Of a stretch of DNA of 64,000 nt, positions 30,794 through 64,000 are shown piece by piece (the first letter of the stretch is position 1; every line of letters begins with the position of its first letter). The position numbers and the translations under genes are program-made. Under the pieces are notes generated by a model. That model saw nothing but the letters and a program-made list of their open reading frames with translations. It was not told where the DNA came from and ran no database searches. This DNA is from Myxococcaceae bacterium. GTDB taxonomy: Bacteria; Myxococcota; Myxococcia; Myxococcales; Myxococcaceae. The stretch is taken from positions 90,174-154,173 of the forward strand of contig JBGALX010000012.1 of NCBI GenBank assembly GCA_044223505.1, in the 5' to 3' direction.

Positions 30794-30938
30794 GCCCGGC
30801 GCGCGATCGAGTCTGGCGCAGCGTGCACCTTCTCGGTGCGATGAGCGCTGCTCGCCCGAGGGCGCTGGGGTGGCACCGCGCTCGCACTTGACGGTCGCGC
30901 AGCCGAACCCAACAGCACTCGATGAAAGGGGCTTCACG

Positions 30939-50304: not shown

Positions 50305-50873
50305 GACGCGGCTGCGTCGACCTCGGTGAGGAGCTTCGACCAGCGCTCGAGCCTGGCGTCCGTCGCGCCGACGATCTCCACGAGCGCGGTCTGAACGTAT
50401 CCACGGTCGAACGCGGGGCCCGTCGCGGCGACGAGACGCTCTACGTCAATGAGGTCCTTCGCTCGGAAGAAGAGCAACTTCATGACACAGAGGTCTTCGG
50501 GCGACAGAAACCACGCCGGGCGGCCCTCGAGGGGCGCGCGACGAATGCGCCGCTGCATCGAGTCATAGAACGGAATGCTCGGCACGAAGACATCGACGCG
50601 CATCGGCCCGAGCCATGCCTGGAAGTCGCCACGGTCGGCCGCCTGCGACCGCGCAGCGTTGGCGTCGAGCGAGCAACCCGCCTGCACGAGCACGCCGAAG
50701 ACCGTGTCCAGCCCTGGCGGCTCGACGAAGACGTCGAGGTCGACGTCCTTCGTGGCGCGTGGAAAGCCCCATACGCCGAGAGCGAGAGCTCCGCCGATGG
50801 CGTACGGCACGCCGCGAGCTTCGAGCAGGTCGGCGAGCCGTCGTGCGAGCTCTGGCGCGCTCGGGCCGCTCAC
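50301..50873 (-). CDS. Nucleotidyltransferase (Pol-beta superfamily) domain protein.
   Basis: GGALALGVWGFPRATKDVDLDVFV gives the G[GS]...D.D nucleotidyltransferase motif. A GTG start overlaps the stop of the upstream small ORF (GTGA). Confidence 0.6.
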   Translation of the reverse strand: MSGPSAPELARRLADLLEARGVPYAIGGALALGVWGFPRATKDVDLDVFVEPPGLDTVFGVLVQAGCSLDANAARSQAADRGDFQAWLGPMRVDVFVPSIPFYDSMQRRIRRAPLEGRPAWFLSPEDLCVMKLLFFRAKDLIDVERLVAATGPAFDRGYVQTALVEIVGATDARLERWSKLLTEVDAAAS

Positions 50874-51115
50874 GGCTTCCGGGCTCGTGCCAGGAGCTCT
50901 TTCCACAGGGCGAGGCTCTCGGGCGAGCGCTTGTCTTCCCACGCCCATGCCTTCGCTGGATTCGGGCTCGCCTCGATGGCGTCTCGGGCCCAGCGGCACA
51001 GCTCACTCAGAGCTCGAGCCAGCTCCTCGGGGCTCATGCCGGCATAGGGCGCGACGTCTTCGCGGATGGCGTCCCGATCGCTGCGTTGCCGCAGAGAGGC
51101 TGGGAGCTTCGTCAT
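50870..51115 (-). CDS. Small helical protein (81 aa) translationally coupled to the nucleotidyltransferase. Candidate cognate partner.
   Basis: MTKLPASLRQRSDRDAIREDVAPYAGMSPEELARALSELCRWARDAIEA... The start is trimmed so it does not overlap the divergent MoxR-family gene. Confidence 0.45.
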   Translation of the reverse strand: MTKLPASLRQRSDRDAIREDVAPYAGMSPEELARALSELCRWARDAIEASPNPAKAWAWEDKRSPESLALWKELLARARKP

Positions 51116-51168
51116 GTCCCGATCTTGTTCGTTCAGGCGTCGTGCCGCAATCGCGTAGTCTCGCCGCG

Positions 51169-52314
51169 ATGTCACCGGAGCTCCAGTCCGCCGCGACCTC
51201 GTTGCAGAAGGCGCTCGCCGCCGCGTCGCAATCGCTCGTCGAGCGCGAAGCCGTCGTTCAGCTCGTCGGCCTGTGCGCCGTGGCGTCCGAGCACCTGCTC
51301 GTCATCGGCCCGCCGGGCACCGCGAAGTCAGAGGCCGTGCGCCGCGTCGCGCGCGCCCTCGGAGGTCACTACTTCGAGTACCTGCTCGGCCGCTTCACCG
51401 AGCCCTCCGAGGTGTTCGGGCCCGTCGACCTGAAGCGGCTCAAAGAGGGCGTGGTCGAGACGCAGACCGACGGCATGCTGCCCGAGGCCGACATCGCCTT
51501 TCTCGACGAGGTGTTCCTCGGCTCGACGGCGATTCTGAACACGCTGCTCGGCATCTTGAACGAGCGCACCTTCCGCCGCGGGCACACGCGCATGACCTGC
51601 CCGCTGCGCGTCTGCGTCGGTGCGTCGAACGCGCTGCCGCAAGACGACATGCTCGGAGCGTTCGCCGACCGCTTCCTCGCGCGCATCTTCCTCACGTCGC
51701 TGCCCGACGCGCGGCTCGAAGAGCTGCTCGGCGGAGGCTGGGCGCTCGAGCAGAAGCCCCTCGAGCACCACGCGACGCTCGCGGACCTCTCGCTGCTCGC
51801 CGACGCGGCGCGAACGGTCGACGTGACGTCGGTGCGCGGGCCGCTCGCGCACTGCGTGCGGCTCTTGCGGCAGGCGGGCATTCACCTCACCGACCGGCGC
51901 GTGGTGCGGGTGCAGCGGCTGGTGGCGGCGGCGGCGATTCTCGCGGGCCGCATGCGGGCGACCGAGGCCGACCTGTGGCCGCTGCTCTACGCGGTGCCGA
52001 CGGCCGACGCTCAAGTGCTCGCGCGCGAGGTGCTGCACGACGTGCTGAAGGCGTCCGAGAACGCAGCGCTGCCGGCGGCGGCAGAAGAGGCGTCGCAGGG
52101 GCCGCTCGCGAGGGCGCACCGGCTCGCAGGCGCGGCGGGGCAACTGCTCGACGCGCCGCCCGAGAAGAGCGACGTGGCCGCGACGCAGGCGTGGCGCCTG
52201 AAGCTCGAGGGCGTGGCGCGCGAGATGGATGCGGGCTTCCCTCCAGAGCAGCTGCCCGAGGCGCTCAAAGCGCTGCGGCAGAGAATCGTCGACGCCACGA
52301 CGTCAGAGCCATGA
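51169..52314 (+). CDS. RavA-like MoxR-family AAA+ ATPase (AAA module only, no LARA domain).
   Basis: LLVIGPPGTAKSEAVRRVA...YFEYLLGRFTEPSEVFGPVDL...EADIAFLDEVFLGSTAILNTLLGILNERTFRRG closely parallels the RavA N-terminal module as recalled from memory. Confidence 0.8.
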   Translation: MSPELQSAATSLQKALAAASQSLVEREAVVQLVGLCAVASEHLLVIGPPGTAKSEAVRRVARALGGHYFEYLLGRFTEPSEVFGPVDLKRLKEGVVETQTDGMLPEADIAFLDEVFLGSTAILNTLLGILNERTFRRGHTRMTCPLRVCVGASNALPQDDMLGAFADRFLARIFLTSLPDARLEELLGGGWALEQKPLEHHATLADLSLLADAARTVDVTSVRGPLAHCVRLLRQAGIHLTDRRVVRVQRLVAAAAILAGRMRATEADLWPLLYAVPTADAQVLAREVLHDVLKASENAALPAAAEEASQGPLARAHRLAGAAGQLLDAPPEKSDVAATQAWRLKLEGVAREMDAGFPPEQLPEALKALRQRIVDATTSEP

Positions 52315-52867: not shown

Positions 52868-55800
52868 CTACTTCCACTTGCCGTTGCCGAAGGTGCCGGC
52901 GACGGGCGGGGTGAGCTTCTCTCGGCCGCCGGTGCCGGCGTGGCACGAGGTGCAGTCTTCACCGGCGGTCGACCCCTCGTGGTTGCCGATGCGCTCCTGG
53001 TTGGCGCTCGGGTGGGTGATGGTCAGGCTGGCGTTGGTGGTCGTCGCGGTCGCGGCGCTCGAGATGGTGAAGCTCGTGGCGTTGGTGATGGTCCTGATGG
53101 TGATGGTGCCGGCGGGAATGGGGGTGCCGGTGATTCGCATACCGACCGCCAGATCCGCCGTCGAGGCGGTCGTCACCGTGGTGCTGCCCGACGTGGTCGA
53201 CGCGACGAGGGCGAGCGGCCCGCTGCTGACCAGGTACGGGCTGCCGGTGTTGTGGCACATCACGCAGTACGTCGGGTTGGTGCTCGCGTTGTAGAGCGTG
53301 CTGCCGAGGTTCGGCGAAGCGGCCACCCCGTTGATGGTCACGTTCGTCGTGAGGCCCGCATGGTTGTAGTTGGAGATCTTCGCGTAGTTCACGCCGGGGT
53401 GGCACTGCGCGCAGCTCGTGTAGGTATTGGCTGGCGGGTGGGCGAGGGTGATGGTGAGCGAGGTGATGTTCGAGCCCGACGTCCACGGGCCGAGCGTGAT
53501 GGTCGCGGGTGCGCCGGTGGCGCCCTTCCAGTTCGGCGCCGACGAGGTGCCGGTGCCCGGCCAGCTGTGACAGCTCGCGCAGTCTTGGCTGCCGGGAGTG
53601 CTCGTGAAGCCCGAGTGATTGTATTTGAACTGTGGCCCCGGCTTCACGTTCAGGTGGCAGTTGCTGCACCGCCCGTTCACGCCATCGCTCACGAGCGGGT
53701 TGCTGCCGGTGAACCGGGTGTGGAACCTCGCCTGCGCCCACTCGACGCCCATGACGCCGGCGACCGTCGAGGGCCCGCTCTGGGTATGGCAGAAGTTGCA
53801 GTCGTGGCCCGTCACGTTCACGTCGGCGTGCGTGATTTGGTCGTGTGTGCCCGGCGGCACGCCGCTGTCGGGCGTCGACGGCACCGTCGAGAGCGTCGCG
53901 CTGTCGATGAGCCCGGCGGGCAGGTTGTTCCTCGTGCCCACGACGTTGCCGCCGCCGTTCGTCAGGCCGTGGCACTCGCGGCAGGTCGTGGCCGTCGTCA
54001 CCGAGGCGTGGAAGGGGGCGCTCTTGCTCCATGCGCTGCCCGTGGCCTTGGCGTCGGCCCGGTGGCAGACCACACAGTCTTTGCCGATGACGAGGGGCGA
54101 GCCGTGGTTCATCCACTGGGCGCCGTTCGTGGCGGTGCCGCCCTGCGCGAGCGAGTAGGTCACGCTGCTCTGCGTCGAGGCGTTCGCGGCGGGCAGCGTC
54201 ACCTGGTGGCACGACACGCAGGTGGCAGGCTGGCTCGCACCGAAGCTCGAGTGCAGGGCGCCGCCGCTCCATCGCGTCGAGACCGGAGTCTGCGTCGCCA
54301 TGCCCAGCGCGCCCGAGTGGCACGTCTGGCACGCCTGAGTCGTCATCTCGGGCGCTCGGTGCTGCATGCGGTAGCGCATCATCAGCGTCAGGTCTGCCTG
54401 AGCGGCGCTCGCCATCAGCGGGTAGTGGCAGCTCACGCACTCGCTCGGCTGCTCGGCGCCGATTCGGGTGTGGAAGGTGCCGTCGGCCCAGCTGGTGCCG
54501 GGGGTGCCCCGGTGACAGGTCGAGCAGTCGAGCCCCGTCACGCCCGAGTCGGAAGCGAAGCGGGCGTGGTGGTCCATCGGGAGCAGCGTCGAGCTCATGC
54601 GCTCGACGATGCCCGGAGCCAGCATCTGGTTGTGACAGTCGAGGCACTGGCCGTTGGGCTGCGGCAGCCCCGCATCGGTGACCGCGAGGTGGAAGACGCC
54701 GTCGGCGTAGCCGCCCGGCTTGTGGCACAGCGGGCACCTCGACGTGTCGGGGTTCGAGCCGCCGTCAGACGAGCCCGGCCGCATCGAGAGGGGTATCGCC
54801 GTCGAAGCGTGCAGCATGCCCTGGTACAGCGGCACGTTCGTCGTCGACATCGACGTCACGAGGTTCAGCGGCCCAGAGCGGTTGAGCGTGATGTTGCTCA
54901 CGGTGATGAACCGACTCGTCGAGCTGATGAAGCTCGCCGGGTACGGCTCGCCGCCGGCCCAGTCGCTCAAGGCCTGGTAGCGGTTCGCGGTGACCGTCGC
55001 CTGGTGGCAGCCGAAGCAGTCGCCCGTGCCGTCGGTCGCGTGGTTGAAGGCCGGTGGGGCTCCGACGGGCATCGTCGGCCGCTGGCTCACGTGACACGAG
55101 ATGCAGCGCACGGCCGAGGGCGTGTTGGGGCCGTGCTGGAAGTCGCCGCCCACCCAGTTCGGAGTCCCGCCCCACATGCCGGTGCCCGGGCCCTTGTGGC
55201 AGAGCGCGCAGTCTTGACCGTCTCCGTGCGTGTTGCCGGAGCTGTTCGTGCCGTAGTCGAACGGCCGGCTGGTGTAGGTGGTGCTCAGCCACTGGGTGGT
55301 GTCGGTCGGGCGCCGCCCGTCGTGACACGGCAAGCAGGTGGCGGGCGTGGCCGAGCCCGCCAGGTGGAACCTGCCGCCCGCCCAGCCGGTGCCGTCGAGC
55401 GCGCTCGCGTTGAAGTGGCACGTCTTGCAGTCGGCGAGGGCGCTGGGCTCCTGGTGGTCGAACTTGAGGCCGTTCGGCTGGCTGACGATGGCGGTGGGGC
55501 GCGAGTTCGCGTGGCAGTCGAGACACGAGTCGACCCTCGCCGTCAGCGAGGGGTGGAACTTCGCCGGCGCCGCGCCGGTCTTGCCGTCGACCCACGTGGC
55601 CGCGCGGGCCGCGCTCGGCGCCTGGTGGCACAGCGAGCAGTCTTGCGGCACCAGCCCGGTCATCGTCGGAGCCCCGCTCGCCCACGCGACCGCTTCGTGC
55701 CTCATCTCGCCCGACGCCGGGTCGCGGCCGGGCGGGCTGACCAGCGGGCCGACGAACCCGCGGGGCTGCGTCGCGACGTGGCAGTCGGTGCAGCCGCTGA

Positions 55801-56518
55801 CGGTCACGCCCAGGGTCACGAGCGAGCTGTGGAGCTCGCCCGGGTAGTAGCCGCCGAGGGCGGCGTCGACGTGGCAGGCCTCGCAGGTCGCCAGGGTCGC
55901 CGCTGGAACCTGGGTCGAGCTGTGGTTCATCACCTGCTTGAGGCTCTGCTGATCAGGCGTCAGGCTGATGATCGACTGCCCCGACCAGGTCGGCACCAGC
56001 CCGGTGACCTGCACGTCACGGCTCGGGTCGCTCGAGTCGCTCGGCGCGCCGGTCGCGTCTTTCCAGGTCTGCGTGTTGTGGCAACCGCCGCACCCCGACG
56101 TGCCCATCGGCCGGTGCGTGAAGCCCGGGATCGGCAGCGCGGCGAACGGGGCGTCGACGTCGTGGCAGGTCGCGCACTCGCTCGACACGACGCCGGTGTG
56201 TGAGAACGGCATCTGTTCGCCGGTGGGGTGGCAGGTGAAGCACGTTCGCTCACCGAAGGTGTAGTCGCCGACGCCCTTGTGCAGCAGGCTCGAGATGCCT
56301 TGATCATGAATGTGGCAGCTGACGCAGGTGAAGTCTTTGAAGCTCTCGGCCGCCGGAGGGTGACAGGCGTCGCACCCGCTCAGCTTCGCGAGGTCGTGGT
56401 TGGTGCCCGCAACGATGGGGAAGTAGACGTGCCCCTCGGGCGTCAGGCCCTGGCCGGTGCCTTTTCCTCCGGGCGTACATGCGGCTGTGGCGACGACGGC
56501 GAGCGTCAGCAGGCGCAT
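52868..56518 (-). CDS. Giant multiheme c-type cytochrome lipoprotein (about 28 CxxCH motifs).
   Basis: MRLLTLAVVATAAC lipobox. 28 CxxCH heme-binding motifs counted across 1216 aa (CDACH, CVSCH, CFTCH, CATCH, CGGCH ... CVMCH, CTSCH). Thr/Ser/Gly-rich linkers sit between them. Confidence 0.9.
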   Translation of the reverse strand: MRLLTLAVVATAACTPGGKGTGQGLTPEGHVYFPIVAGTNHDLAKLSGCDACHPPAAESFKDFTCVSCHIHDQGISSLLHKGVGDYTFGERTCFTCHPTGEQMPFSHTGVVSSECATCHDVDAPFAALPIPGFTHRPMGTSGCGGCHNTQTWKDATGAPSDSSDPSRDVQVTGLVPTWSGQSIISLTPDQQSLKQVMNHSSTQVPAATLATCEACHVDAALGGYYPGELHSSLVTLGVTVSGCTDCHVATQPRGFVGPLVSPPGRDPASGEMRHEAVAWASGAPTMTGLVPQDCSLCHQAPSAARAATWVDGKTGAAPAKFHPSLTARVDSCLDCHANSRPTAIVSQPNGLKFDHQEPSALADCKTCHFNASALDGTGWAGGRFHLAGSATPATCLPCHDGRRPTDTTQWLSTTYTSRPFDYGTNSSGNTHGDGQDCALCHKGPGTGMWGGTPNWVGGDFQHGPNTPSAVRCISCHVSQRPTMPVGAPPAFNHATDGTGDCFGCHQATVTANRYQALSDWAGGEPYPASFISSTSRFITVSNITLNRSGPLNLVTSMSTTNVPLYQGMLHASTAIPLSMRPGSSDGGSNPDTSRCPLCHKPGGYADGVFHLAVTDAGLPQPNGQCLDCHNQMLAPGIVERMSSTLLPMDHHARFASDSGVTGLDCSTCHRGTPGTSWADGTFHTRIGAEQPSECVSCHYPLMASAAQADLTLMMRYRMQHRAPEMTTQACQTCHSGALGMATQTPVSTRWSGGALHSSFGASQPATCVSCHQVTLPAANASTQSSVTYSLAQGGTATNGAQWMNHGSPLVIGKDCVVCHRADAKATGSAWSKSAPFHASVTTATTCRECHGLTNGGGNVVGTRNNLPAGLIDSATLSTVPSTPDSGVPPGTHDQITHADVNVTGHDCNFCHTQSGPSTVAGVMGVEWAQARFHTRFTGSNPLVSDGVNGRCSNCHLNVKPGPQFKYNHSGFTSTPGSQDCASCHSWPGTGTSSAPNWKGATGAPATITLGPWTSGSNITSLTITLAHPPANTYTSCAQCHPGVNYAKISNYNHAGLTTNVTINGVAASPNLGSTLYNASTNPTYCVMCHNTGSPYLVSSGPLALVASTTSGSTTVTTASTADLAVGMRITGTPIPAGTITIRTITNATSFTISSAATATTTNASLTITHPSANQERIGNHEGSTAGEDCTSCHAGTGGREKLTPPVAGTFGNGKWK

Positions 56519-56713
56519 GGCTCAAATGTACCTTGACGCGGATCAAGGCAGGCGCGTGCGCGCGGCCTGGGCCTCTCGTTCGATGGAGACCTCGGCGCAG
56601 AAGGTCGCTGATGGCGCCGAAGGTCCCACAGCAGCCGGGGGTTCCCTCGAACCGCCGACCTTGTCGCCGTGCTTGTCTTTGCGCACAGGTCGAGCCACAC
56701 GTACCGCTCGACC

Positions 56714-57598
56714 ATGATGGCCTCGTACGAGATCGAGCTGCCCGAGCCCTCGCGGTCGCTGTGCGACTGCTGCGGTGGCCTGAGCGTCCGCATGACGCGG
56801 TTCGTGCTCCGCAACGACGCCCCGTACGCCGTCTACTGCGCCGCCTACTCGAACCATCGCTCGCACCGCGAGCTCGCGATGCTCGTGTCGCTCGGCGAGT
56901 GGGGCGAAGGCAGCACGCCTTCCCAGCGCTCGGCCTTCTACTGCCGCATTCGCCCGAGCGGTGACTCGTACGAGCTCATGCTCGGCGACGCCGCGAGGTC
57001 GAGCTGGGCCGACGACGAGCGCGTCGGCGCCAAGCTCTCGCGCGAGCAGGCCCTCGCGCACCCGATGAAGTCGATCGCGTTCGGGCTGATCGACGACGTG
57101 TTCCACAAAGACCCCTCGCTGCGCGGCTTCCTCGAGCGCGTGCACTGCGGCGACGCGGCGGCTCCGCTCGAGCGCAACTTCGCCATGCCCGACGACGTCT
57201 TCGAGCTCGGCGATGCGAGAGCGACACGCGCCGAGCTCGGCCGCAACTTCGTCGTGCTCGACGGCGAACGGCACTTCGTGCGCTGCCTGCTCCCGCTCGA
57301 CGTCGAAGAGTACGGCAGCTGGAACGTCGGCCTCTGGGTCGAGGTCTCGAAGGCCGACTACGACCACGCTTCGAAGGTGTGGGAAGACGCGGCGCTGTAC
57401 CCGAAGCTCGAGCTCCGAGGCACGCTCGCGAACGACGTCGCCACCGACATCGGGCTGCCCATCGCCGCGCGCAGCGAGCTTCACGTTCGCGTGGTCGACG
57501 CCGAAGAGCTGCCGCAGATCTCGCCGCCCGCGAGCCTCGCCCGGCAGTGGCCGAAAGACGACTTCGAGCGCTTCGCCGTCACGCGCGGCTTTCTGTGA
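56714..57598 (+). CDS. DUF2199-like protein with an N-terminal Cys cluster.
   Basis: MMASYEIELPEPSRSLCDCCGG...YAVYCAAYSNH... Family name recalled from memory. Confidence 0.6.
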   Translation: MMASYEIELPEPSRSLCDCCGGLSVRMTRFVLRNDAPYAVYCAAYSNHRSHRELAMLVSLGEWGEGSTPSQRSAFYCRIRPSGDSYELMLGDAARSSWADDERVGAKLSREQALAHPMKSIAFGLIDDVFHKDPSLRGFLERVHCGDAAAPLERNFAMPDDVFELGDARATRAELGRNFVVLDGERHFVRCLLPLDVEEYGSWNVGLWVEVSKADYDHASKVWEDAALYPKLELRGTLANDVATDIGLPIAARSELHVRVVDAEELPQISPPASLARQWPKDDFERFAVTRGFL

Positions 57599-58809
57599 TG
57601 CTGACGCTCGTCGTGCTGCTGCAGCTGCAGCAACCCTGGCCGCCCCCGCCGTGGGCACCGGGCGGGGCCTCGCGCCCCGAAGACCTCGCAATCACGCTCG
57701 CGACGATGGGGCCCGGCGACGGCGTCGCCTACATGGGAGGTCACTCGGCGCTCGGCGTCATCGACACGAAGCGCATGGAGGGCCGCCTCTACAACTTCGG
57801 CGTCGTCGAGTTCTCGCCCGACCTGATGTGGAACTTCGTGCTCGGCCGCCTCGACTTCTACGCCGACGAAGCGGCCATCGAGTCGACGTACGACGTGTAC
57901 CGCGCGCTCGACCGCGACGTCCGCGTGCAGGTGCTGAACTTGAGCCCCGAGCAGTCGCTGAAGCTGGCGAACGCGCTCGCGGTGGGCGTGCTGCCCGAGA
58001 ACCGCACGTTCCGCTACCACCACTTCGACGACAACTGCTCGACGCGACCTCGCGACCTCATCGACCGGGCGTTCGGCGGCGCCCTGTCGCGCGACAACCA
58101 GGGCCCGGCGCGCATGAGCCTGCGCGAGCACTCGCGGCGCTACACGAGGGTGTTCCCCTTCTTGTCGGTCTGGCTCGACTACATGCAGAACGACAGCGTC
58201 GACCGGCCCATCAAGCGCTACGACGAGGCCTTCCTGCCCGACGAGCTCGAGCGGCAGCTCGACAACCTCGTCGTCGACGGCCAGAGCGCCGTGAAGAAGA
58301 AGACGACGCTCTACCAGTCGAAGACGAACCCGCCGCCGCCGAACGACTCGCCCCGCTGGAGCGCCTGGCTCGCCTGCTTCTCGCTGCTCGCCGGCGCCGC
58401 GGTGCTGGTGCTGAGCCGCAGCCGGAAGGCCGCCGCGCGCAAGGCGCTCGGGGTCTTCTTCGCGCTCGTCGGTCTCGTCTGGGGCGGCAGCGGCCTCTTG
58501 CTGTTCATGCTCGGGTTCTTCACCGAGCACCTCATCACGCACGGCAACGAGAACCTGCTGTTCGCGAGCCCGCTGACGCTGCTGCTCTTGCCGCTGGGAG
58601 TGCTGCTGTACCGGAATCACCCGCGCGCGCTGAAGGGGCTCGAGTGGGTGACGCTCGCGCTCGCCGGCCTCGCGCTCATCGGCGTCGCCGCGAAGGTGCT
58701 GCCGAGGTTCGACCAGCAGAACGGCAACGTCATCGCCCTGGTGCTGCCGCTGAGCCTCGCGTGCGCCGTCGCCTTCCGGCTTCGCGGCCGCGCTGAAGCG
58801 AAGAGCTGA
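57598..58809 (+). CDS. DUF4105-family membrane protein (periplasmic N-domain plus about 4 TM helices).
   Basis: Signal/TM segment MLTLVVLLQLQQ. Middle region ...RVQVLNLSPEQSLKLANALAVGVLPENRTFRYHHFDDNCSTRPRDLID. A C-terminal TM bundle. The start overlaps the upstream stop (TGATG); the exact start is accurate to about 3 nt. Confidence 0.65.
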   Translation: MLTLVVLLQLQQPWPPPPWAPGGASRPEDLAITLATMGPGDGVAYMGGHSALGVIDTKRMEGRLYNFGVVEFSPDLMWNFVLGRLDFYADEAAIESTYDVYRALDRDVRVQVLNLSPEQSLKLANALAVGVLPENRTFRYHHFDDNCSTRPRDLIDRAFGGALSRDNQGPARMSLREHSRRYTRVFPFLSVWLDYMQNDSVDRPIKRYDEAFLPDELERQLDNLVVDGQSAVKKKTTLYQSKTNPPPPNDSPRWSAWLACFSLLAGAAVLVLSRSRKAAARKALGVFFALVGLVWGGSGLLLFMLGFFTEHLITHGNENLLFASPLTLLLLPLGVLLYRNHPRALKGLEWVTLALAGLALIGVAAKVLPRFDQQNGNVIALVLPLSLACAVAFRLRGRAEAKS

Positions 58810-58836: not shown

Positions 58837-60351
58837 TCAGAGCTGACTGGGGTCCGTCGGCGCGCCGAGGCCCTTCGCGTTGAGAATCGCCTGCTCCTGG
58901 GGCAGCCGCTCGAGCCAGAACGTGCGCAAGAAGTCGAACGCCTTCGCGAGGGTCTTGCTCGGGGCGTCGAAGTTCGCTCCGCCGTCCTGGCCCGAGGCCT
59001 TCAGCATCGCGTAGAGCAGCTTCGGCACGTAGTCGTTCTTCTTCACCTCGTACGACGAGGGCACCATCGGGAAGCCGCGGTCGTGGTGGAAGTTGAACTC
59101 GAAGAACTCGATGGCGCTCTTGAGCTGCGGGTCCTTCACCTCGGCGAGCTTGTCGGCCAGCTCGGCGCGCCACACGTCGATCTGCTTCTGCAGCTGGCGG
59201 ATCTGCGGCTCGGTCATGCGGTGCTCGGCCTCGTACGCCAGCCGCTTCCCGAAGATCGCCGAGTTGTGCCGCGCGTCGTGCACGTAGAAGTCGGAGCCCG
59301 GGCGCACGAAGCCGTCTGCCGCGACCGGCTCCTGCGTGACGCCCATCAGGAACAGGTCGTACTGCGCGAGCCGCATGAAGACGTCGGTGCCGAGGGGCTC
59401 GCTGGTCGGCAGGCTGATCAGCTTCAGCTCCGACGTGTTCGCGAACGCGTCGACGAACGGCTTCTGCACCTTCCGGAAGCCCGAGCCGACGCCGGGGTTC
59501 GCCTCGAAGATCGTCATCTGCCGGCTCTCGAAGAGCTTCACCTCTTCGGCCATCGTCACGTGCTTGTGGCCCTGCAGGAACCGATCGACGACCAGGAACG
59601 CGCGGTCTTTGAGCGAGAGGTCGCCCTCGTCGAAGTGCCCCATCGCGCGCGCCGAGAAGTACGAGAGCTCTTGCAGCCGCTCGTAGTCGATCTTCCCGCC
59701 CTTCAGGTGCCCGGCGACCTCGGCCTTCAGCGTCTGCAGGTGGTGGATGCCGAGCTCGTGCTCGGCGATCGCAGCAGTGTCGCCCTTCGGCAGGCGCTCG
59801 AGCTGTGAGCGCACCTTCTCGAGCTCCGCGCCGAGGTCCTTCTCGAAGCCCTTCAGCACCGGCAGGCCGTAGTCGCTGAAGTCGAAGCGGTACGGGTGCG
59901 CCGGGTCGACGCTGCGCTGCTCGGCGAACCGCGTCTTCACGCTCGCGATGAACGCGTCGGGGTCCTTCAGCACGACGTCGAGCGTCGGGTACTTGCCCAC
60001 CAGCTTCGCGTTCGCCTCGGCGTAGACCTTCTGCTGCTTCGCCGTCGCGCCGACGCCGAAGAGCGCGTCGGCCGAGCTCGCCTGGTGTTTCCCGAACCAG
60101 GCATGAGCCTGCGACGTCGTCGCCTTCGTCAGCTCGCCGACGAGCGCAGCGGCGCCGAGGCCGTCGTGCGCGCCCGCCTTCGCCTTGAACGCATCGGACA
60201 GCACCGCCTGCTCCGACGGCTGCAGCGGCCGGCCGAGGTGCCGCTCGGCCGCTGTCACGAGCTTCTGCAGCGTGGGCGACTCGACGGCGAGCCGCTGCTG
60301 CACGAAGGCGGCGAGGCCGGCGGTGGGCGCAGCGCTCTTGCTCAGGGCCAT
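58837..60351 (-). CDS. Hypothetical protein (504 aa), no signal peptide, no recognisable domain.
   Basis: High GC3 throughout. Lys-rich. Sits downstream of the muramidase gene on the same strand. Confidence 0.6.
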   Translation of the reverse strand: MALSKSAAPTAGLAAFVQQRLAVESPTLQKLVTAAERHLGRPLQPSEQAVLSDAFKAKAGAHDGLGAAALVGELTKATTSQAHAWFGKHQASSADALFGVGATAKQQKVYAEANAKLVGKYPTLDVVLKDPDAFIASVKTRFAEQRSVDPAHPYRFDFSDYGLPVLKGFEKDLGAELEKVRSQLERLPKGDTAAIAEHELGIHHLQTLKAEVAGHLKGGKIDYERLQELSYFSARAMGHFDEGDLSLKDRAFLVVDRFLQGHKHVTMAEEVKLFESRQMTIFEANPGVGSGFRKVQKPFVDAFANTSELKLISLPTSEPLGTDVFMRLAQYDLFLMGVTQEPVAADGFVRPGSDFYVHDARHNSAIFGKRLAYEAEHRMTEPQIRQLQKQIDVWRAELADKLAEVKDPQLKSAIEFFEFNFHHDRGFPMVPSSYEVKKNDYVPKLLYAMLKASGQDGGANFDAPSKTLAKAFDFLRTFWLERLPQEQAILNAKGLGAPTDPSQL

Positions 60352-60543
60352 GGGGTGACTTCACTCGCCCACCCGGTGAGCCACAATGCCGCGCGGCGCC
60401 ACTCCGAGTGGTACGGCGCGCCAGCCGCGGCCGCATGAACGTGCGAACCATCGAGCGGGCGTCGCTTCGCGAGCCACGACGTTCCGAGGTCAGGGCCTTG
60501 AAGCTCGGCCTCGTCGCCGCCGCGCTCGTGCGCGGGTTCGACC

Positions 60544-61851
60544 TCAGAACCAGCCCGCCCACTTCCGCAGCGCGAGCTCCGAGCCGCTGAAGACGTCGTT
60601 GTCGACGCCGCCCTTGATGCCCGTCTGCACGAACGGGAACTTGTAGTCGCTGCTCTGCGGGCTCCAGTGCGCGTCCCAGATGGGCGAGTGCGGCACGAGG
60701 TGGTGCGCCTGAGACACCCTGCTCGCCGAGCAGTAGATGAGCGGCCACTGCCCGGTCACCTGGTGCACGCGCACCGCCGCGTCGCGCAGCGTCTGCGGCG
60801 ACGAGAGCGCGCTGGCCTCCCAGTCGAGCGCGAGCCGCGTGCCCGGCTTCAGCGGCCCGTGCACGCCCATCGTCTTCAGGAAGTGGTCGGCCTGCGCACG
60901 GCCGTTGCCCGGCTGCAGGAAGTGGTACGCGATGCGCAGGTCGAACTTGCCGGGCTCGAGCTTCTTGCCGAGCGTGCTCCAGCGCCCGCGGAAGGTGCTG
61001 TCGACGCCGCGCGAACCGTCGGTCGCTTTGATCGCCATGAACCGCGTGCCAGGTCGCGCGAGCAGCTCGCGGAACTTCGCGTCGCTCTGCCAGTGCGAGA
61101 CGTCGTAGCCCTTCTGAAACCCGCCCGGCTTCACCGAGGGGAAGCGGCCGGCCGTCGCCGCCTTCTTCTGCAGCGCCGCCCGCGTCGCGCGGTTCGCCTC
61201 GCCCGTCACGGTGAGCCCCTGCCTCCGCTGAAACGCCCGCACCGCGCGCGCCGTGTCTGACGTGAAGCGGCCGTCGGCCTTGCCGGGGTCGCGGCCGAGC
61301 AGCTTCAGGTTCAGCTCGGCCTGCTTGACGCGGAACTGCGAGGTCTGGGCGAGCTGCGCGCCGATGGCGTCGCCCTTGTCGGGCACGAGCTTGTCCTGCT
61401 TGCGGAAGGCGTGGATGGCCGCGAGCGTCTTCGCGTCGAACGTGCCGTCGACCTTGCCGGTGTCGAAGCCGAGTGCGTCGAGCCGCGCTTCGACGGCGCG
61501 AATGTCGGTGCCGCGCTGGCCGAGCCGCGCGGGCGTCTCGAAGCCGCTCTTCACGAACAGCTGCTGCGCCTTGAGCGCGTTGACCTCGGCGGCGTCGAGC
61601 ACGCCGTCGGCGGTGAGGTCCTTCTGCGTCTGCAGCGCAGTGACCGCGGTCTGCGTCGCGGCGTCGTACGTGCCGTTCACCGGGCCGGTGTATGCGCCGA
61701 CTCCGCGCAAGAGCCGCTGCAGCGCTTCGACCGCGGGGCCGGTCTCGCCGGGCTGAAGCTGCTCGGCTCCGGCGACCGACGCGGTGATCCGCGAGAGATC
61801 CGCTCGCACGGCCTTCACTTCGCTGGGGAGAACCCGGTGGCGGAGAATCAT
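60544..61851 (-). CDS. GH25-family muramidase (lysozyme) fused to 4 peptidoglycan-binding (PG_binding_1-like) repeats. No signal peptide.
   Basis: Repeats GPAVEALQRLLRGVGAYTGPVNGTYDAATQTAV, GTDIRAVEARLDALGFDTGKVDGTFDAKTLAAI and two more. A GH25 core follows: GYDVSHWQSD...FMAIKATDG. Confidence 0.75.
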   Translation of the reverse strand: MILRHRVLPSEVKAVRADLSRITASVAGAEQLQPGETGPAVEALQRLLRGVGAYTGPVNGTYDAATQTAVTALQTQKDLTADGVLDAAEVNALKAQQLFVKSGFETPARLGQRGTDIRAVEARLDALGFDTGKVDGTFDAKTLAAIHAFRKQDKLVPDKGDAIGAQLAQTSQFRVKQAELNLKLLGRDPGKADGRFTSDTARAVRAFQRRQGLTVTGEANRATRAALQKKAATAGRFPSVKPGGFQKGYDVSHWQSDAKFRELLARPGTRFMAIKATDGSRGVDSTFRGRWSTLGKKLEPGKFDLRIAYHFLQPGNGRAQADHFLKTMGVHGPLKPGTRLALDWEASALSSPQTLRDAAVRVHQVTGQWPLIYCSASRVSQAHHLVPHSPIWDAHWSPQSSDYKFPFVQTGIKGGVDNDVFSGSELALRKWAGWF

Positions 61852-62062
61852 GACGACGTTTTCGAGCGCAGGTCGCGCTCCGTCGCCTGAAACGCCGGCG
61901 TGACGCAGACAAGCGCCACAGATGATTCGCGCTTCGACGCGTTTCTCTTCGCGTGAGAGCGCACTGTGAAGAAGCGTGCTCGAGAATTTTCGCAGAATCG
62001 CTGGCGCGCTTTACATCGTGCGCGTCATCGGGCGCCGCTCTTCGCAGCCTTCTTCGGCCGGG

Positions 62063-62305
62063 TCACTTGACGCTCTTCTCCCAGTCGTCGGTGCTGCTGA
62101 TGTTGCCGTCCTTCCAGATGGACTCGATCTTCTGGTGCGTGGTGCTCGGCTTCGTCTTGCTGTCCGCCGTGTCCTTCACCTCGAACGTGTCGTTCGCCTT
62201 CGGCGCCGCCGGCATCTTCTTCTCGACCTTGCACTGCTCGACCTTCGCGGTCAGCGGCCTCGCCTTCGGTGCGACGGAGGGACGGAACGTGACCTTCGAG
62301 CCCAT
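62063..62305 (-). CDS. Small Lys-rich hypothetical protein (80 aa).
   Basis: MGSKVTFRPSVAPKARPLTAKVEQCKVEKKMPAAPKANDTFEVKDTADSKTKPSTTHQKIESIWKDGNISSTDDWEKSVK. Near-perfect GC3 codon bias. Present only as the tail of a 572-aa spurious track ORF. Confidence 0.5.
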   Translation of the reverse strand: MGSKVTFRPSVAPKARPLTAKVEQCKVEKKMPAAPKANDTFEVKDTADSKTKPSTTHQKIESIWKDGNISSTDDWEKSVK

Positions 62306-62416: not shown

Positions 62417-64000
62417 GTGAGCGAGCTGCCCAAACCGCTTCAGCGATGGACGCAAGCGCTCGCGCTCTTCCCGCGCCACCTCGCGCTCGAGCTCGGCGCC
62501 TGGCTGCCGCGCCTCCACGGCGCGCTCGGCCCGATGCGCACCGGCAGCGTCGAGGGCACCGACGAGCCCGACGGCTTCGACGGCCTCTCGCGCCGCGGCC
62601 CCTACGAGCGGCTGCTCAGCGCCGAGTGGGCGCTCGCCGACGAGCACCCCGACGAGTTCGCGCGCCGCGCCTCCAGCGGCGAGCACGCGTTCTTCCGCCT
62701 CGCGTTCCGCGCTCCCGCCGGCAAGCGCCGCTGCCTCGTGCTCTTGGACAGCGGCCCCTCGCAGCTCGGCACTCCGCGGCTCGCCCACCTCGCCGCCCTC
62801 GCCGTGCTCGAGCGCCGCGCCGCCGAGGCCCGCTCCGAGTTTCTCTGGGGCGTGCTCCAGCAGCCGCCCGGCCGCTTCCTCACCGGCCTCTCGCAGTCGG
62901 CCGTCGAGCACTGGCTCAACGCGCGCACCGGCGCCGAGCCCACGCCCGGCGACCTCTCGGGCTGGCGCGAGGCGTTCGGCCGCAGCGGGCCCGACGACGA
63001 GGTCTGGGTGCTCGGCTCGCCGCGCGCTGCCCGGTTCGAAGAGGTGAGCCTGCTGCTCGTGCGCGACGCTCCCGGCGCGCTCGCCGTCGAGCTCAAGCCC
63101 CGCGCCGGAGCCCGCCGCGAGGTGGTGCTCCCGCTCCCGTCGGAAGAGGTCTGCACCCAGCTCATCCGCGACCCGCTCAAGCGCGAGGCGCCCATCGACC
63201 GCCTCGCCGGCCCCTCGACGAACCTCGTGTTCATCGCCGGCGGCTCGCGCCTGCTCTACGGCACCGCCGGCGGCTCGCTCGTCACGCACATCATCCCCGG
63301 CGCGCCCGGCTTCGCGTCGGCGCCGGTGTGGTGGGCTCCGCCGAAAGACGAAGAGGTCGTCGCCGCCGGCTGGGACAAGGGCCTCCTGCTCGTCACGCGC
63401 CGCGACGGCGCGCTGCGCGTCAACTGGTACAACAAGCGCGGCCAGCTGCGCGGGCAGGGCGCGTGGCACCTCTTCGGCCCGAAGAGCACCGAGCCCGTGC
63501 GGCACCTCACGAACCTCATCGGCCCCTGCGTGCACGCTCCGGCGTGGCACGTCGTGACGAGCCACGGCGACCTCGCCGCCTTCATGCCCGACCGCACGTA
63601 CGCGGTGCGCAAGCGCAACGTCGCCGCCGTCGCGCTCCACAAGGGCCGGCTGCTCACCGTCGAGCGCAAGAACGGCGAGGCCCACATCGAGCTCGTGCCG
63701 CCTGCGCCCGGCGCCGCCGTGAAGTTCCCCGCGCCCGGCCGCGCCGTCGAGCGCACCGGCGTGAAGATTCAGCTCTTCCACCCCGCGAAGGAGCGCGTCG
63801 CCGGCGTCTTTCAGGACCTCGCCGCCGACGCCGGCATCATCACCGTGCGCGGCGTCATGCCGACCGCGCCCGTCGTGTTCGGCTTCGACAACGTCGCCGA
63901 GCAGAGCGTCGCCGTCGGCATTCAGCTCCCCGACGGCCGCTGGCGCGTCGTGCGCCTGAGGAAGAACGTCGACTGCTCCGACATCGCCGTGCCGCTCACC
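62417..64000 (+). CDS. Hypothetical protein, partial (runs off the right edge; not in the ORF track).
   Basis: Frame opens after TGA at 62390. A GTG at about 62417 gives VSELPKPLQRWTQALALFPRHLALELGAWLP... About 525 codons have very high GC3 and no stop. No domain recognised. Confidence 0.55.
   Translation, partial: MSELPKPLQRWTQALALFPRHLALELGAWLPRLHGALGPMRTGSVEGTDEPDGFDGLSRRGPYERLLSAEWALADEHPDEFARRASSGEHAFFRLAFRAPAGKRRCLVLLDSGPSQLGTPRLAHLAALAVLERRAAEARSEFLWGVLQQPPGRFLTGLSQSAVEHWLNARTGAEPTPGDLSGWREAFGRSGPDDEVWVLGSPRAARFEEVSLLLVRDAPGALAVELKPRAGARREVVLPLPSEEVCTQLIRDPLKREAPIDRLAGPSTNLVFIAGGSRLLYGTAGGSLVTHIIPGAPGFASAPVWWAPPKDEEVVAAGWDKGLLLVTRRDGALRVNWYNKRGQLRGQGAWHLFGPKSTEPVRHLTNLIGPCVHAPAWHVVTSHGDLAAFMPDRTYAVRKRNVAAVALHKGRLLTVERKNGEAHIELVPPAPGAAVKFPAPGRAVERTGVKIQLFHPAKERVAGVFQDLAADAGIITVRGVMPTAPVVFGFDNVAEQSVAVGIQLPDGRWRVVRLRKNVDCSDIAVPLT

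Follow-up and report, generated by a model that had tools for sequence, protein, structure and literature searches.

Several well-described groups of peptidoglycan hydrolases invite comparison with the locus presented here. GH25 muramidases such as Streptomyces Cellosyl (1jfx) and the fungal enzymes 2x8r and 6zm8 are single-domain proteins that are secreted with signal peptides. The phage endolysins phiKZ gp144 (KZ144; 3bkh) and Burkholderia AP3gp15 (5nm7) are leaderless, with an N-terminal PG-binding part, a C-terminal wall-cleaving part and catalytic modules that are interchangeable. Muramidase effectors of the T6SS are also leaderless, and its glycoside hydrolase effectors are accompanied by cognate periplasmic immunity proteins (Tse3/Tsi3, Tge/Tgi). 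Spore-cortex lytic enzymes include SleB, SleC and SleM (5jip), the last a GH25 enzyme, and in myxobacteria, murein is remodelled during sporulation. Contact-dependent prey lysis by myxobacteria involves local peptidoglycan breakdown by enzymes that are not identified (PMC12428579); prey lysis that depends on the needle-less T3SS* entails localised degradation of peptidoglycan, and the effectors of this system are likewise not identified (PMC10849154, PMC12428579). The lysozyme of the locus would resemble the T3SS*/Kil lysis effectors and LlpM, a secreted lysozyme-like protein of Myxococcus xanthus, in role only, namely wall degradation by myxobacterial predators.

The locus lies in a 64-kb window (the whole stretch of DNA that was analysed), which is ordinary myxobacterial chromosome, and comprises three neighbouring open reading frames for proteins of 80, 435 and 504 aa (Table 1). 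The first-pass annotation had placed all three on one common strand, and its coordinates proved exact. Third-position GC is 0.96, 0.94 and 0.96 in the 80-, 435- and 504-aa frames, a coding-type codon bias, compared with 0.56–0.61 in the intergenic spacers, and the source NCBI assembly lists all three frames as genes. They are real genes. The block is flanked on one side by a divergent gene (62417+) and on the other by a convergent Lnb-family gene that ends at 58809, 27 nt from the 504-aa gene. In the 192-nt spacer, the GH25 stop codon is followed by a GC-rich hairpin (ccgcgc-acga-gcgcgg); a consensus scan found no promoters and terminators only at chance level, and did not score the hairpin as a canonical terminator.

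Table 1. Coordinates of the genes, domains, motifs and spacers of the locus within the window.
Feature	Position	Strand	Basis or details
80-aa hydrophilic orphan protein	62063..62305	-	no TM segment or signal
Spacer, small gene/GH25 gene	61852..62062	.	211 nt, non-coding, locally lower GC (0.63)
Leaderless modular muramidase (predicted), 435 aa	60544..61851 (stop codon included)	-	Pfam and AF2 model
N-terminal element, residues 1-30	61762..61851	-	beta-strand 4-7 'HRVL', helix 9-26; not a signal peptide
PG_binding_1 x3	61156..61761	-	residues ~31-96, 105-165, 170-232
GH25 catalytic barrel (predicted), residues 246-435	60547..61116	-	PF01183 and Foldseek
D343-W344-E345, GH25 'DxE' catalytic motif	60817..60825	-	partner Asp is D250 in 'GYDVSHWQ'
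Spacer, GH25 gene/504-aa gene	60352..60543	.	192 nt; third-position GC 0.61 (arbitrary frame)
504-aa protein, rare uncharacterised family	58837..60351	-	residues 1-100 variable, low model confidence; ~100-495 conserved domain
Core motif P342-x-x-A-D346-G-F-x-R350 ... F355-x-x-H358-D359-x-R361-H362	59263..59328	-	columns invariant in 22 sequences
Second motif F419-N420-x-H-H423-D424-x-G426 ... P431-S432	59056..59097	-	invariant columns

The 435-aa protein had been called a GH25 muramidase, and this identity is upheld by a Glyco_hydro_25 match (PF01183; 57.5 bits, with the cutoff at 27) over residues 250–402. The whole protein is modelled by AF2 at a pLDDT of 96.1, and Foldseek aligns the barrel with 2x8r, 1jfx and 6zm8 at E-values of 3e-11 to 8e-11 and target-normalised TM-scores of 0.66–0.73 (3e-11 to 1e-9, all at a probability of 1.00, when 2wag is added), while phmmer relates the lysozyme to 6zm8 at 2.8e-8. 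Cellosyl and the fungal enzymes have the same fold and the same GxDxSxxQ and DxE motifs at 27% identity, whereas the lysozyme adds an N-terminal cassette of 245 residues and has no signal. D250, D343, W344 and E345 are invariant across 35 sequences, and the motif can also be read directly in the DNA. On the evidence of sequence and model, the lysozyme is predicted to be a catalytically intact N-acetylmuramidase of the active GH25 type. The cassette scored 131.8 bits (9.7e-39) for PG_binding_1 (PF01471), in three stretches that correspond in number to three 3-helix units in the AF2 model, rather than the four repeats that had been proposed. The repeats resemble the N-terminal domain of SleB (6tci) with a target-normalised TM-score of 0.87. 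Residues 1–30 do not form a repeat but a strand-helix element of their own.

The absence of an export signal from the lysozyme, also claimed by the first-pass annotation, is borne out. Signals were called with a hydropathy heuristic, not a trained predictor, as the highest 12-residue Kyte-Doolittle mean within the first 45 aa; true signals exceed 2 on this scale, and the GH25, 504-aa and small proteins reach 0.6, 1.36 and 0.18, respectively. The lysozyme has no hydrophobic h-region, the heuristic recognised no Sec, Tat or lipoprotein signal, and the twin-arginine motif RRxFLK is absent. Its frame is open upstream to a TAA at ~62012 and contains no ATG, GTG or TTG before 61851, nor does the 211-nt spacer as a whole in that frame, and the starts of orthologues coincide with its own. 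Moreover, an N-terminal hydrophobic segment is found in none of ~50 relatives from uncultured Myxococcota. Because these relatives also have no signal, the leaderless state is a family trait and not an annotation error. AF2 predicts an ordered strand-helix element for the first 30 residues at a pLDDT of 96–98, which weakens the idea that they act as a disordered secretion signal.

The GH25 orthologues are 435–445 aa in length and 54–72% identical to the lysozyme, and so far they come only from MAGs of uncultured Myxococcota and not from cultured Myxococcus. The N-terminal cassette, a 30-residue strand and helix ("HRVLP") followed by three or four PG-binding repeats, is common to a lineage-restricted family of endolysin-like wall hydrolases, likewise known so far from uncultured Myxococcota alone, in which it is joined to GH25, GH19, NlpC/P60, CHAP or Amidase_2 catalytic domains, with R6 and V7 nearly invariant across all of these versions. 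Four-repeat forms are seen in the paralogues P0053, P0056, P0074, P0075, P0081 and P0082. The orthologues are surrounded by diverse, ordinary chromosomal genes, and eight contexts of the lysozyme family contained no homologue of the 504-aa or small protein, holin, immunity-like gene or secretion system nearby. No gene is common to these eight neighbourhoods, and a hydropathy search of them found no conserved holin- or spanin-like small membrane protein beside the family members.

The 504-aa neighbour was rightly described as uncharacterised, with no match in Pfam, NCBIfam, PADLOC or PHROG. Its best homologue is 53% identical, compared with 72% for the best GH25 orthologue, and its frame leaves room for only three more upstream codons. 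The family is small, with 177 clusters (representatives) among 1.84 billion proteins; a search of 22 members against Pfam at E-values up to 10 gave no recurrent weak family, and the protein has no sequence-profile or fold match in the PDB. It is modelled with a pLDDT of 84.6 and a core above 90, and distant relatives retain the core-motif segment alone (profile positions 275–395). Its members come from Bdellovibrionota, Myxococcota and Vulcanimicrobiota. Sec-like N-termini are present in 39 of 88 full-length members, Bacteriovorax, Halobacteriovoraceae and Oligoflexia included, and Sec or lipoprotein signals occur on the members from Bdellovibrionota. In some members the domain is joined to Lipase_3 or PLDc_2, in others to an alpha/beta-hydrolase (weak, below the Pfam cut-off) or a CoaE-like domain (just below cut-off), and one distant relative carries Ntox46. 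Signals and variable fusions are features looked for in polymorphic toxins, but neither an immunity gene nor a delivery domain turned up in the family. The protein of this rare and undescribed family has the appearance of a secreted enzyme independent of the lysozyme, most likely a hydrolytic effector that would act on the prey envelope or lipids, an assignment of low confidence in which the lipid target is a guess from a few domain fusions.

The 80-aa protein is lysine-rich, as had been noted (14 of 80 residues are K), and has no family match in Pfam, NCBIfam, PADLOC or PHROG. Its sole homologue, P0261 (49% identity), is encoded in a related genome, an Archangiaceae MAG, with no adjoining GH25 gene. 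By these comparisons, it appears to be a lineage-specific orphan.

The first-pass annotation had further proposed that the 504-aa protein could serve the lysozyme as a carrier, chaperone, immunity protein or co-effector. The first three roles find no support, with no GH25 gene at any of 20 loci of 504-aa homologues (within 1–8 kb, depending on the extent of the contig) and no 504-aa gene in the eight GH25 contexts. The adjacency was seen in one organism only (locus L001 is the same sequence) and is absent from all 28 other contexts, the comparison loci being mostly MAG contigs of which some are short or possibly mis-binned (e.g., the 'Archangium' locus L002, 55% GC). The 504-aa loci have no common neighbour, and all-against-all BLAST of the locus ORFs yielded nothing beyond antisense artefacts and synteny that was local to Vulcanimicrobiota. 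The 504-aa protein itself has no PAAR, MIX, DUF4150 or other delivery domain. A connection to T6SS or Tad loci had also been raised, and Pfam found no T6SS, T3SS, Tad or phage genes among 25 large ORFs of the window (the three study proteins and 22 others). Independent conservation of the neighbours, which the annotation had itself named as evidence against the pairing, is what is observed. The three genes are neighbours, not a delivery module, and only a loose case is left for a co-effector role.

The best explanation, to which we give moderate confidence, is that the locus contains three adjacent and functionally independent genes: a GH25 muramidase, a separate enzyme-like 504-aa protein and an 80-aa orphan. 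The lysozyme would be made in the cytoplasm and would never be free in the producer's own periplasm, and the absence of an accompanying immunity gene would follow from this. It may reach foreign walls independently of Sec, by lysis, in vesicles or through a dedicated contact-dependent machine. There, the three PG_binding_1 domains would dock the enzyme on murein and the (beta/alpha) barrel, with D250 and D343-x-E345, would cleave the MurNAc-beta-1,4-GlcNAc bond. The 504-aa gene was probably acquired independently of the lysozyme.

An unlikely, yet the strongest, alternative is that the lysozyme and 504-aa genes form a co-regulated effector pair or 'predation islet', of unrelated origin and without physical partnership, whose products are co-transcribed and co-released to act on the wall and membrane of prey. 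The common strand and the bounding divergent and convergent genes would suit such a unit, as would the absence of signals from both proteins in this organism. Furthermore, each family is associated with predatory lineages (the GH25 family to Myxococcota MAGs, the 504-aa family to Bdellovibrionota, Myxococcota and Vulcanimicrobiota), and the latter is secreted- and effector-like in appearance. However, gaps of 192 and 211 nt between the genes point to separate promoters, and the adjacency was found in one organism only and in 0 of 28 other contexts.

It is more doubtful still that the HRVLP cassette is a recognition or targeting module for Sec-independent contact-dependent export and, independently of this, that the 504-aa protein represents a new-fold, metal-dependent effector family. 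The machine meant here is a Myxococcota apparatus such as the needle-less T3SS*/Kil type, with interchangeable wall-hydrolase warheads as its cargo, and the 504-aa family would be common to the distant predators Bdellovibrionota, Myxococcota and Vulcanimicrobiota. If the targeting-module reading were true, the lysozyme family would supply the missing peptidoglycan-degrading lysis effectors.

A phage-derived endolysin that still operates in a lysis cassette or a holin-dependent (type-10-like) secretion cassette is a distinctly improbable reading of the lysozyme. The best PHROG matches of the protein are all endolysins, phiKZ gp144 and AP3gp15 are among its structural matches, it is leaderless as endolysins are, and the endolysins of Gram-negative phages are likewise built with PG_binding_1 at the N-terminus and the catalytic domain at the C-terminus. 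However, tblastn against phage genomes gave domain-level matches only (at most 33% identity and 51% coverage), the scanned ORFs of the window include no phage genes and the neighbours have no PHROG match. Unlike an endolysin, the lysozyme lies outside any prophage, has no holin or spanin neighbours at this locus or conserved beside the eight family members, and is vertically conserved in diverse chromosomal contexts; it also has three repeats instead of one, and the conserved strand-helix element. Evolutionary descent of the lysozyme from endolysins is plausible.

Even less probable is a model along the lines of the first-pass annotation, in which a T6SS, outer-membrane exchange or vesicles would deliver the lysozyme and the 504-aa protein would act as its adaptor, chaperone, carrier or immunity protein. 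That a wall hydrolase without a leader is encoded in a myxobacterium-like genome would fit, and by analogy the lysozyme resembles the leaderless muramidases that Tse3 and the Tge effectors represent and that are used against other bacteria. In contrast to those systems, it lacks a conserved immunity gene beside it, and neither T6SS marker domains nor T6SS genes accompany it: PAAR, MIX, DUF4150, VgrG and Rhs domains are absent from all three proteins, and no T6SS gene is present among the scanned ORFs of the window. Moreover, no GH25 gene stands near the 504-aa homologues at the 20 other loci and no conserved gene adjoins the GH25 family in its eight contexts, and the enzyme-like invariant Asp/His motifs of the 504-aa protein, together with the Sec signals of its relatives, misfit an immunity protein or chaperone.

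Equally remote is an endogenous role, in which the producer would remodel or destroy its own wall as it develops, sporulates or undergoes programmed lysis, for although SleB is the top NCBIfam match and SleB, SleM and SleC are among the structural matches, the SleB match covers the PG-binding repeats only and falls far below the family cutoff (103 against 236.5 bits), the repeats are tripled, the phylum and biology are different, a cytoplasmic enzyme would still need a route to the wall, and a single cassette that is paired with five different catalytic domains resembles an offensive arsenal more than it does a housekeeping function.

Two of the three genes offer leads beyond the locus. A leaderless hydrolase clade with one cassette and swapped catalytic domains is a concrete candidate set for Sec-independent delivery, and modular lysins could also be drawn from it. 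A second lead is the family of the 504-aa protein, which is rare, confidently folding and without a Pfam or PDB relative, with enzyme-like invariant residues, a concentration in predatory lineages and occasional fusions to lipases.

The 435-aa protein, encoded between a small Lys-rich protein of 80 aa and a protein of 504 aa, is shown by sequence and structural modelling to be an intact predicted GH25 muramidase that carries three murein-binding domains, is without a classical export signal and belongs to a modular family. The three minus-strand ORFs fill exactly the interval assigned to them in the first-pass annotation, and they are real genes. Their third-position GC is 0.96 (80 aa), 0.94 (435 aa) and 0.96 (504 aa) by codon-position count, that of the 211-nt and 192-nt intergenic spacers is 0.56-0.61 in an arbitrary frame, and the source NCBI assembly annotates proteins for all three ORFs on its 279-kb contig.

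Coordinates of the three genes and of other features in the window
Feature	Position	Strand	Basis
80-aa Lys-rich protein	62063-62305	-	ORF
435-aa GH25 lysozyme	60544-61851	-	ORF
504-aa protein	58837-60351	-	ORF
Divergent ORF, >527 aa, continuing past the window end	62417-64000	+	
Lnb-family membrane protein (Lnb_N + 5TMH_Lnb)	57379-58809	+	
DUF2199 gene	56669-57598	+	
1216-aa multihaem cytochrome	52868-56518	-	
bpMoxR AAA+ ATPase	50575-52314	+	
730-aa MVP_shoulder/Vault_3 protein	30870-33062	+	

Pfam assigns Glyco_hydro_25 to residues 250-402 of the lysozyme (57.5 bits, cutoff 27) and PG_binding_1 to three stretches (131.8 bits). Similarly, an AlphaFold2 model built from 35 homologues (pLDDT 96.1, pTM 0.87) has three 3-helix units followed by a barrel, and the earlier count of four repeats should be revised to three. 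Using Foldseek, the barrel resembles the GH25 enzymes of Aspergillus, Streptomyces (Cellosyl) and Acremonium (E 3e-11 to 8e-11; target-normalised TM 0.66-0.73), and the repeats match the N-terminal domain of SleB. The catalytic D250 (in GYDVSHWQ) and D343-W-E345 are present and invariant across the family. The architecture is like that of Gram-negative phage endolysins (PHROG matches; structures 3bkh and 5nm7), but similarity to phage genomes is at the domain level only. The enzyme is thus a variant on a known theme, being endolysin-like, leaderless and cassette-based.

The reported absence of an export signal was borne out. No hydrophobic core is present at the N-terminus, where hydropathy over 12 residues peaks at 0.6, and none of ~50 relatives is signal-like there by hydropathy. 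A missed upstream start with a signal peptide was also looked for; the frame is open for only 53 codons, among which there is no ATG, GTG or TTG. Furthermore, ~20 full-length orthologues from the database search (435-445 aa, 54-72% identity; the named ones labelled as MAGs of Archangiaceae or Myxococcaceae) share the start position and a conserved xLxHRVLPxxxKxVRxDL segment. Leaderlessness appears, from these sequences, to be a trait of the whole family.

The same N-terminal cassette, comprising a strand-helix at residues 1-30 and the PG_binding_1 repeats, is joined in other homologues to different catalytic domains, namely NlpC/P60 (P0058, P0068), GH19 (P0074, P0075), CHAP (P0081) and Amidase_2 (P0082), and some of these proteins have a fourth PG-binding repeat. 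Residues 1-30 of the lysozyme are modelled as ordered, with a beta-strand at 4-7 and a helix at 9-26 (pLDDT 96-98), an arrangement more in keeping with a structural element of the cassette than with a disordered tag for secretion. There is also a second leaderless GH25 clade of ~316 aa from Myxococcaceae-labelled MAGs (P0057, P0060-P0067), in which a conserved coiled-coil-like N-terminal segment (MKAQ.AVR.LN.DL..LK...) replaces the PG-binding repeats.

There is no evidence for a functional link between the lysozyme and the neighbouring genes, which the first-pass annotation had proposed. The lysozyme had no tblastn match in 20 loci with 504-aa homologues (flanks of 8 kb each side where the contig allows, some contigs being much shorter), and all-against-all ORF comparison found no neighbour family shared among the 504-aa loci. 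In the reverse direction, homologues of the 504-aa and small proteins were absent from all eight lysozyme-family contexts examined, which have no common neighbour and none of which holds a holin-like protein, immunity-like gene, phage gene or secretion gene. The gene downstream of the closest lysozyme orthologue is unrelated; this orthologue has 72% identity whereas the best 504-aa homologue reaches 53%, and the two genes therefore differ in their histories. For the 80-aa protein the sole homologue (49% identity) comes from an Archangiaceae MAG that also holds two lysozyme orthologues; it lies there on another contig and adjoins a glyoxalase gene. The neighbours are conserved independently of the lysozyme, an outcome that the annotation itself had named as speaking against its proposal.

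The 504-aa protein appears to represent a rare, unexplained, enzyme-like family, which merits follow-up separate from the lysozyme. It has no match in Pfam, NCBIfam, PADLOC or PHROGs, and permissive Pfam scanning of 22 family members gave none. A word-indexed search returned 28 homologues at 36-53% identity, and an exhaustive HMM search only 177 among 1.84 billion cluster representatives. Among representative genomes, members come from Vulcanimicrobiota/Xenobia (~8), Bacteriovorax, Halobacteriovoraceae, Oligoflexia and Bdellovibrionales, and from one 'Archangium' and one Sericytochromatia MAG. Within the conserved region (residues ~100-495), most invariant polar residues fall in two motifs, P-x-x-A-D346-G-F-x-R ... 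F-x-x-H358-D359-x-R361-H362 and F-N420-x-H-H423-D424-x-G...P-S432. Sec-type N-termini are found in 39 of 88 full-length members, including Bacteriovorax (with a lipobox), Halobacteriovoraceae and one of two Oligoflexia, the second scoring just under the cut-off; high-GC members, that of the window included, are without them. Fusions to Lipase_3 (P0153), PLDc_2 (P0156) and DUF4781 (P0002) occur, along with a weak alpha/beta-hydrolase match below Pfam's cut-off (P0029) and a CoaE-like domain just below cut-off (P0130), and a distant core-only relative lies inside a 1652-aa protein with Ntox46. This profile would fit an independently secreted enzyme or effector and does not suit the suggested chaperone or immunity protein.

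Three distant core-only relatives (P0243, P0237, P0241) are low-GC proteins, one being the Ntox46 protein and another having a signal peptide; the ADG...DF.xHD..H motif is retained in them, with the second motif altered to F(E/D)..HE. The homologues P0022 and P0027 (locus L021, 8001-9644) share a conserved C-terminal extension of ~130 aa (...FNQHPHGFGSP...KPAWGTYDM...) without a Pfam match. The 'Archangium sp.' MAG locus (JAYUVR010000019.1) has 55% GC, unusually low for Archangium, which may reflect mis-binning; its family member, 841 aa long, is fused to DUF4781 and contains hydrophobic segments.

We infer that the lysozyme would attack foreign peptidoglycan after Sec-independent release, either passively (lysis or vesicles) or via a dedicated contact-dependent machine. 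It would never freely enter the periplasm of its producer, which would for that reason need no immunity gene. Prey lysis by Myxococcus xanthus needs the needle-less T3SS* and involves local peptidoglycan degradation, and its effectors have not been identified (PMC12428579; PMC10849154). As such, the leaderless cassette family, found solely in uncultured lineages, could speculatively be considered a candidate for T3SS*-dependent lysis effectors.

The window has 71% GC. T6SS and Tad loci, suggested as worth seeking, were not among its 25 large ORFs scanned, nor were T3SS or phage gene families. The remaining gene content is that of a typical myxobacterial chromosome: Ser/Thr kinases carrying TPR or PilZ domains, proteins with MopE motifs, a bpMoxR ATPase, a multihaem cytochrome and an adhesin with cadherin repeats. 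The cluster is bounded on one side by the divergent ORF, which has no Pfam or PHROG match, and on the other by the convergent Lnb-family gene, which ends 27 nt from the stop of the 504-aa gene. Because its listed start overlaps the DUF2199 gene, the true start of the Lnb-family gene is probably further downstream. The cytochrome combines MtrC/MtrF-like domains with cytochrome c7/c3 repeats, and its N-terminus resembles a lipoprotein signal (MRLLTLAVVATAAC). The bpMoxR ATPase (3.8e-85) is of the MoxR-vWA-beta-propeller ternary systems, and MVP_shoulder (4.7e-28) and Vault_3 domains mark the 730-aa protein as a bacterial counterpart, by homology, of the major vault protein of eukaryotes.
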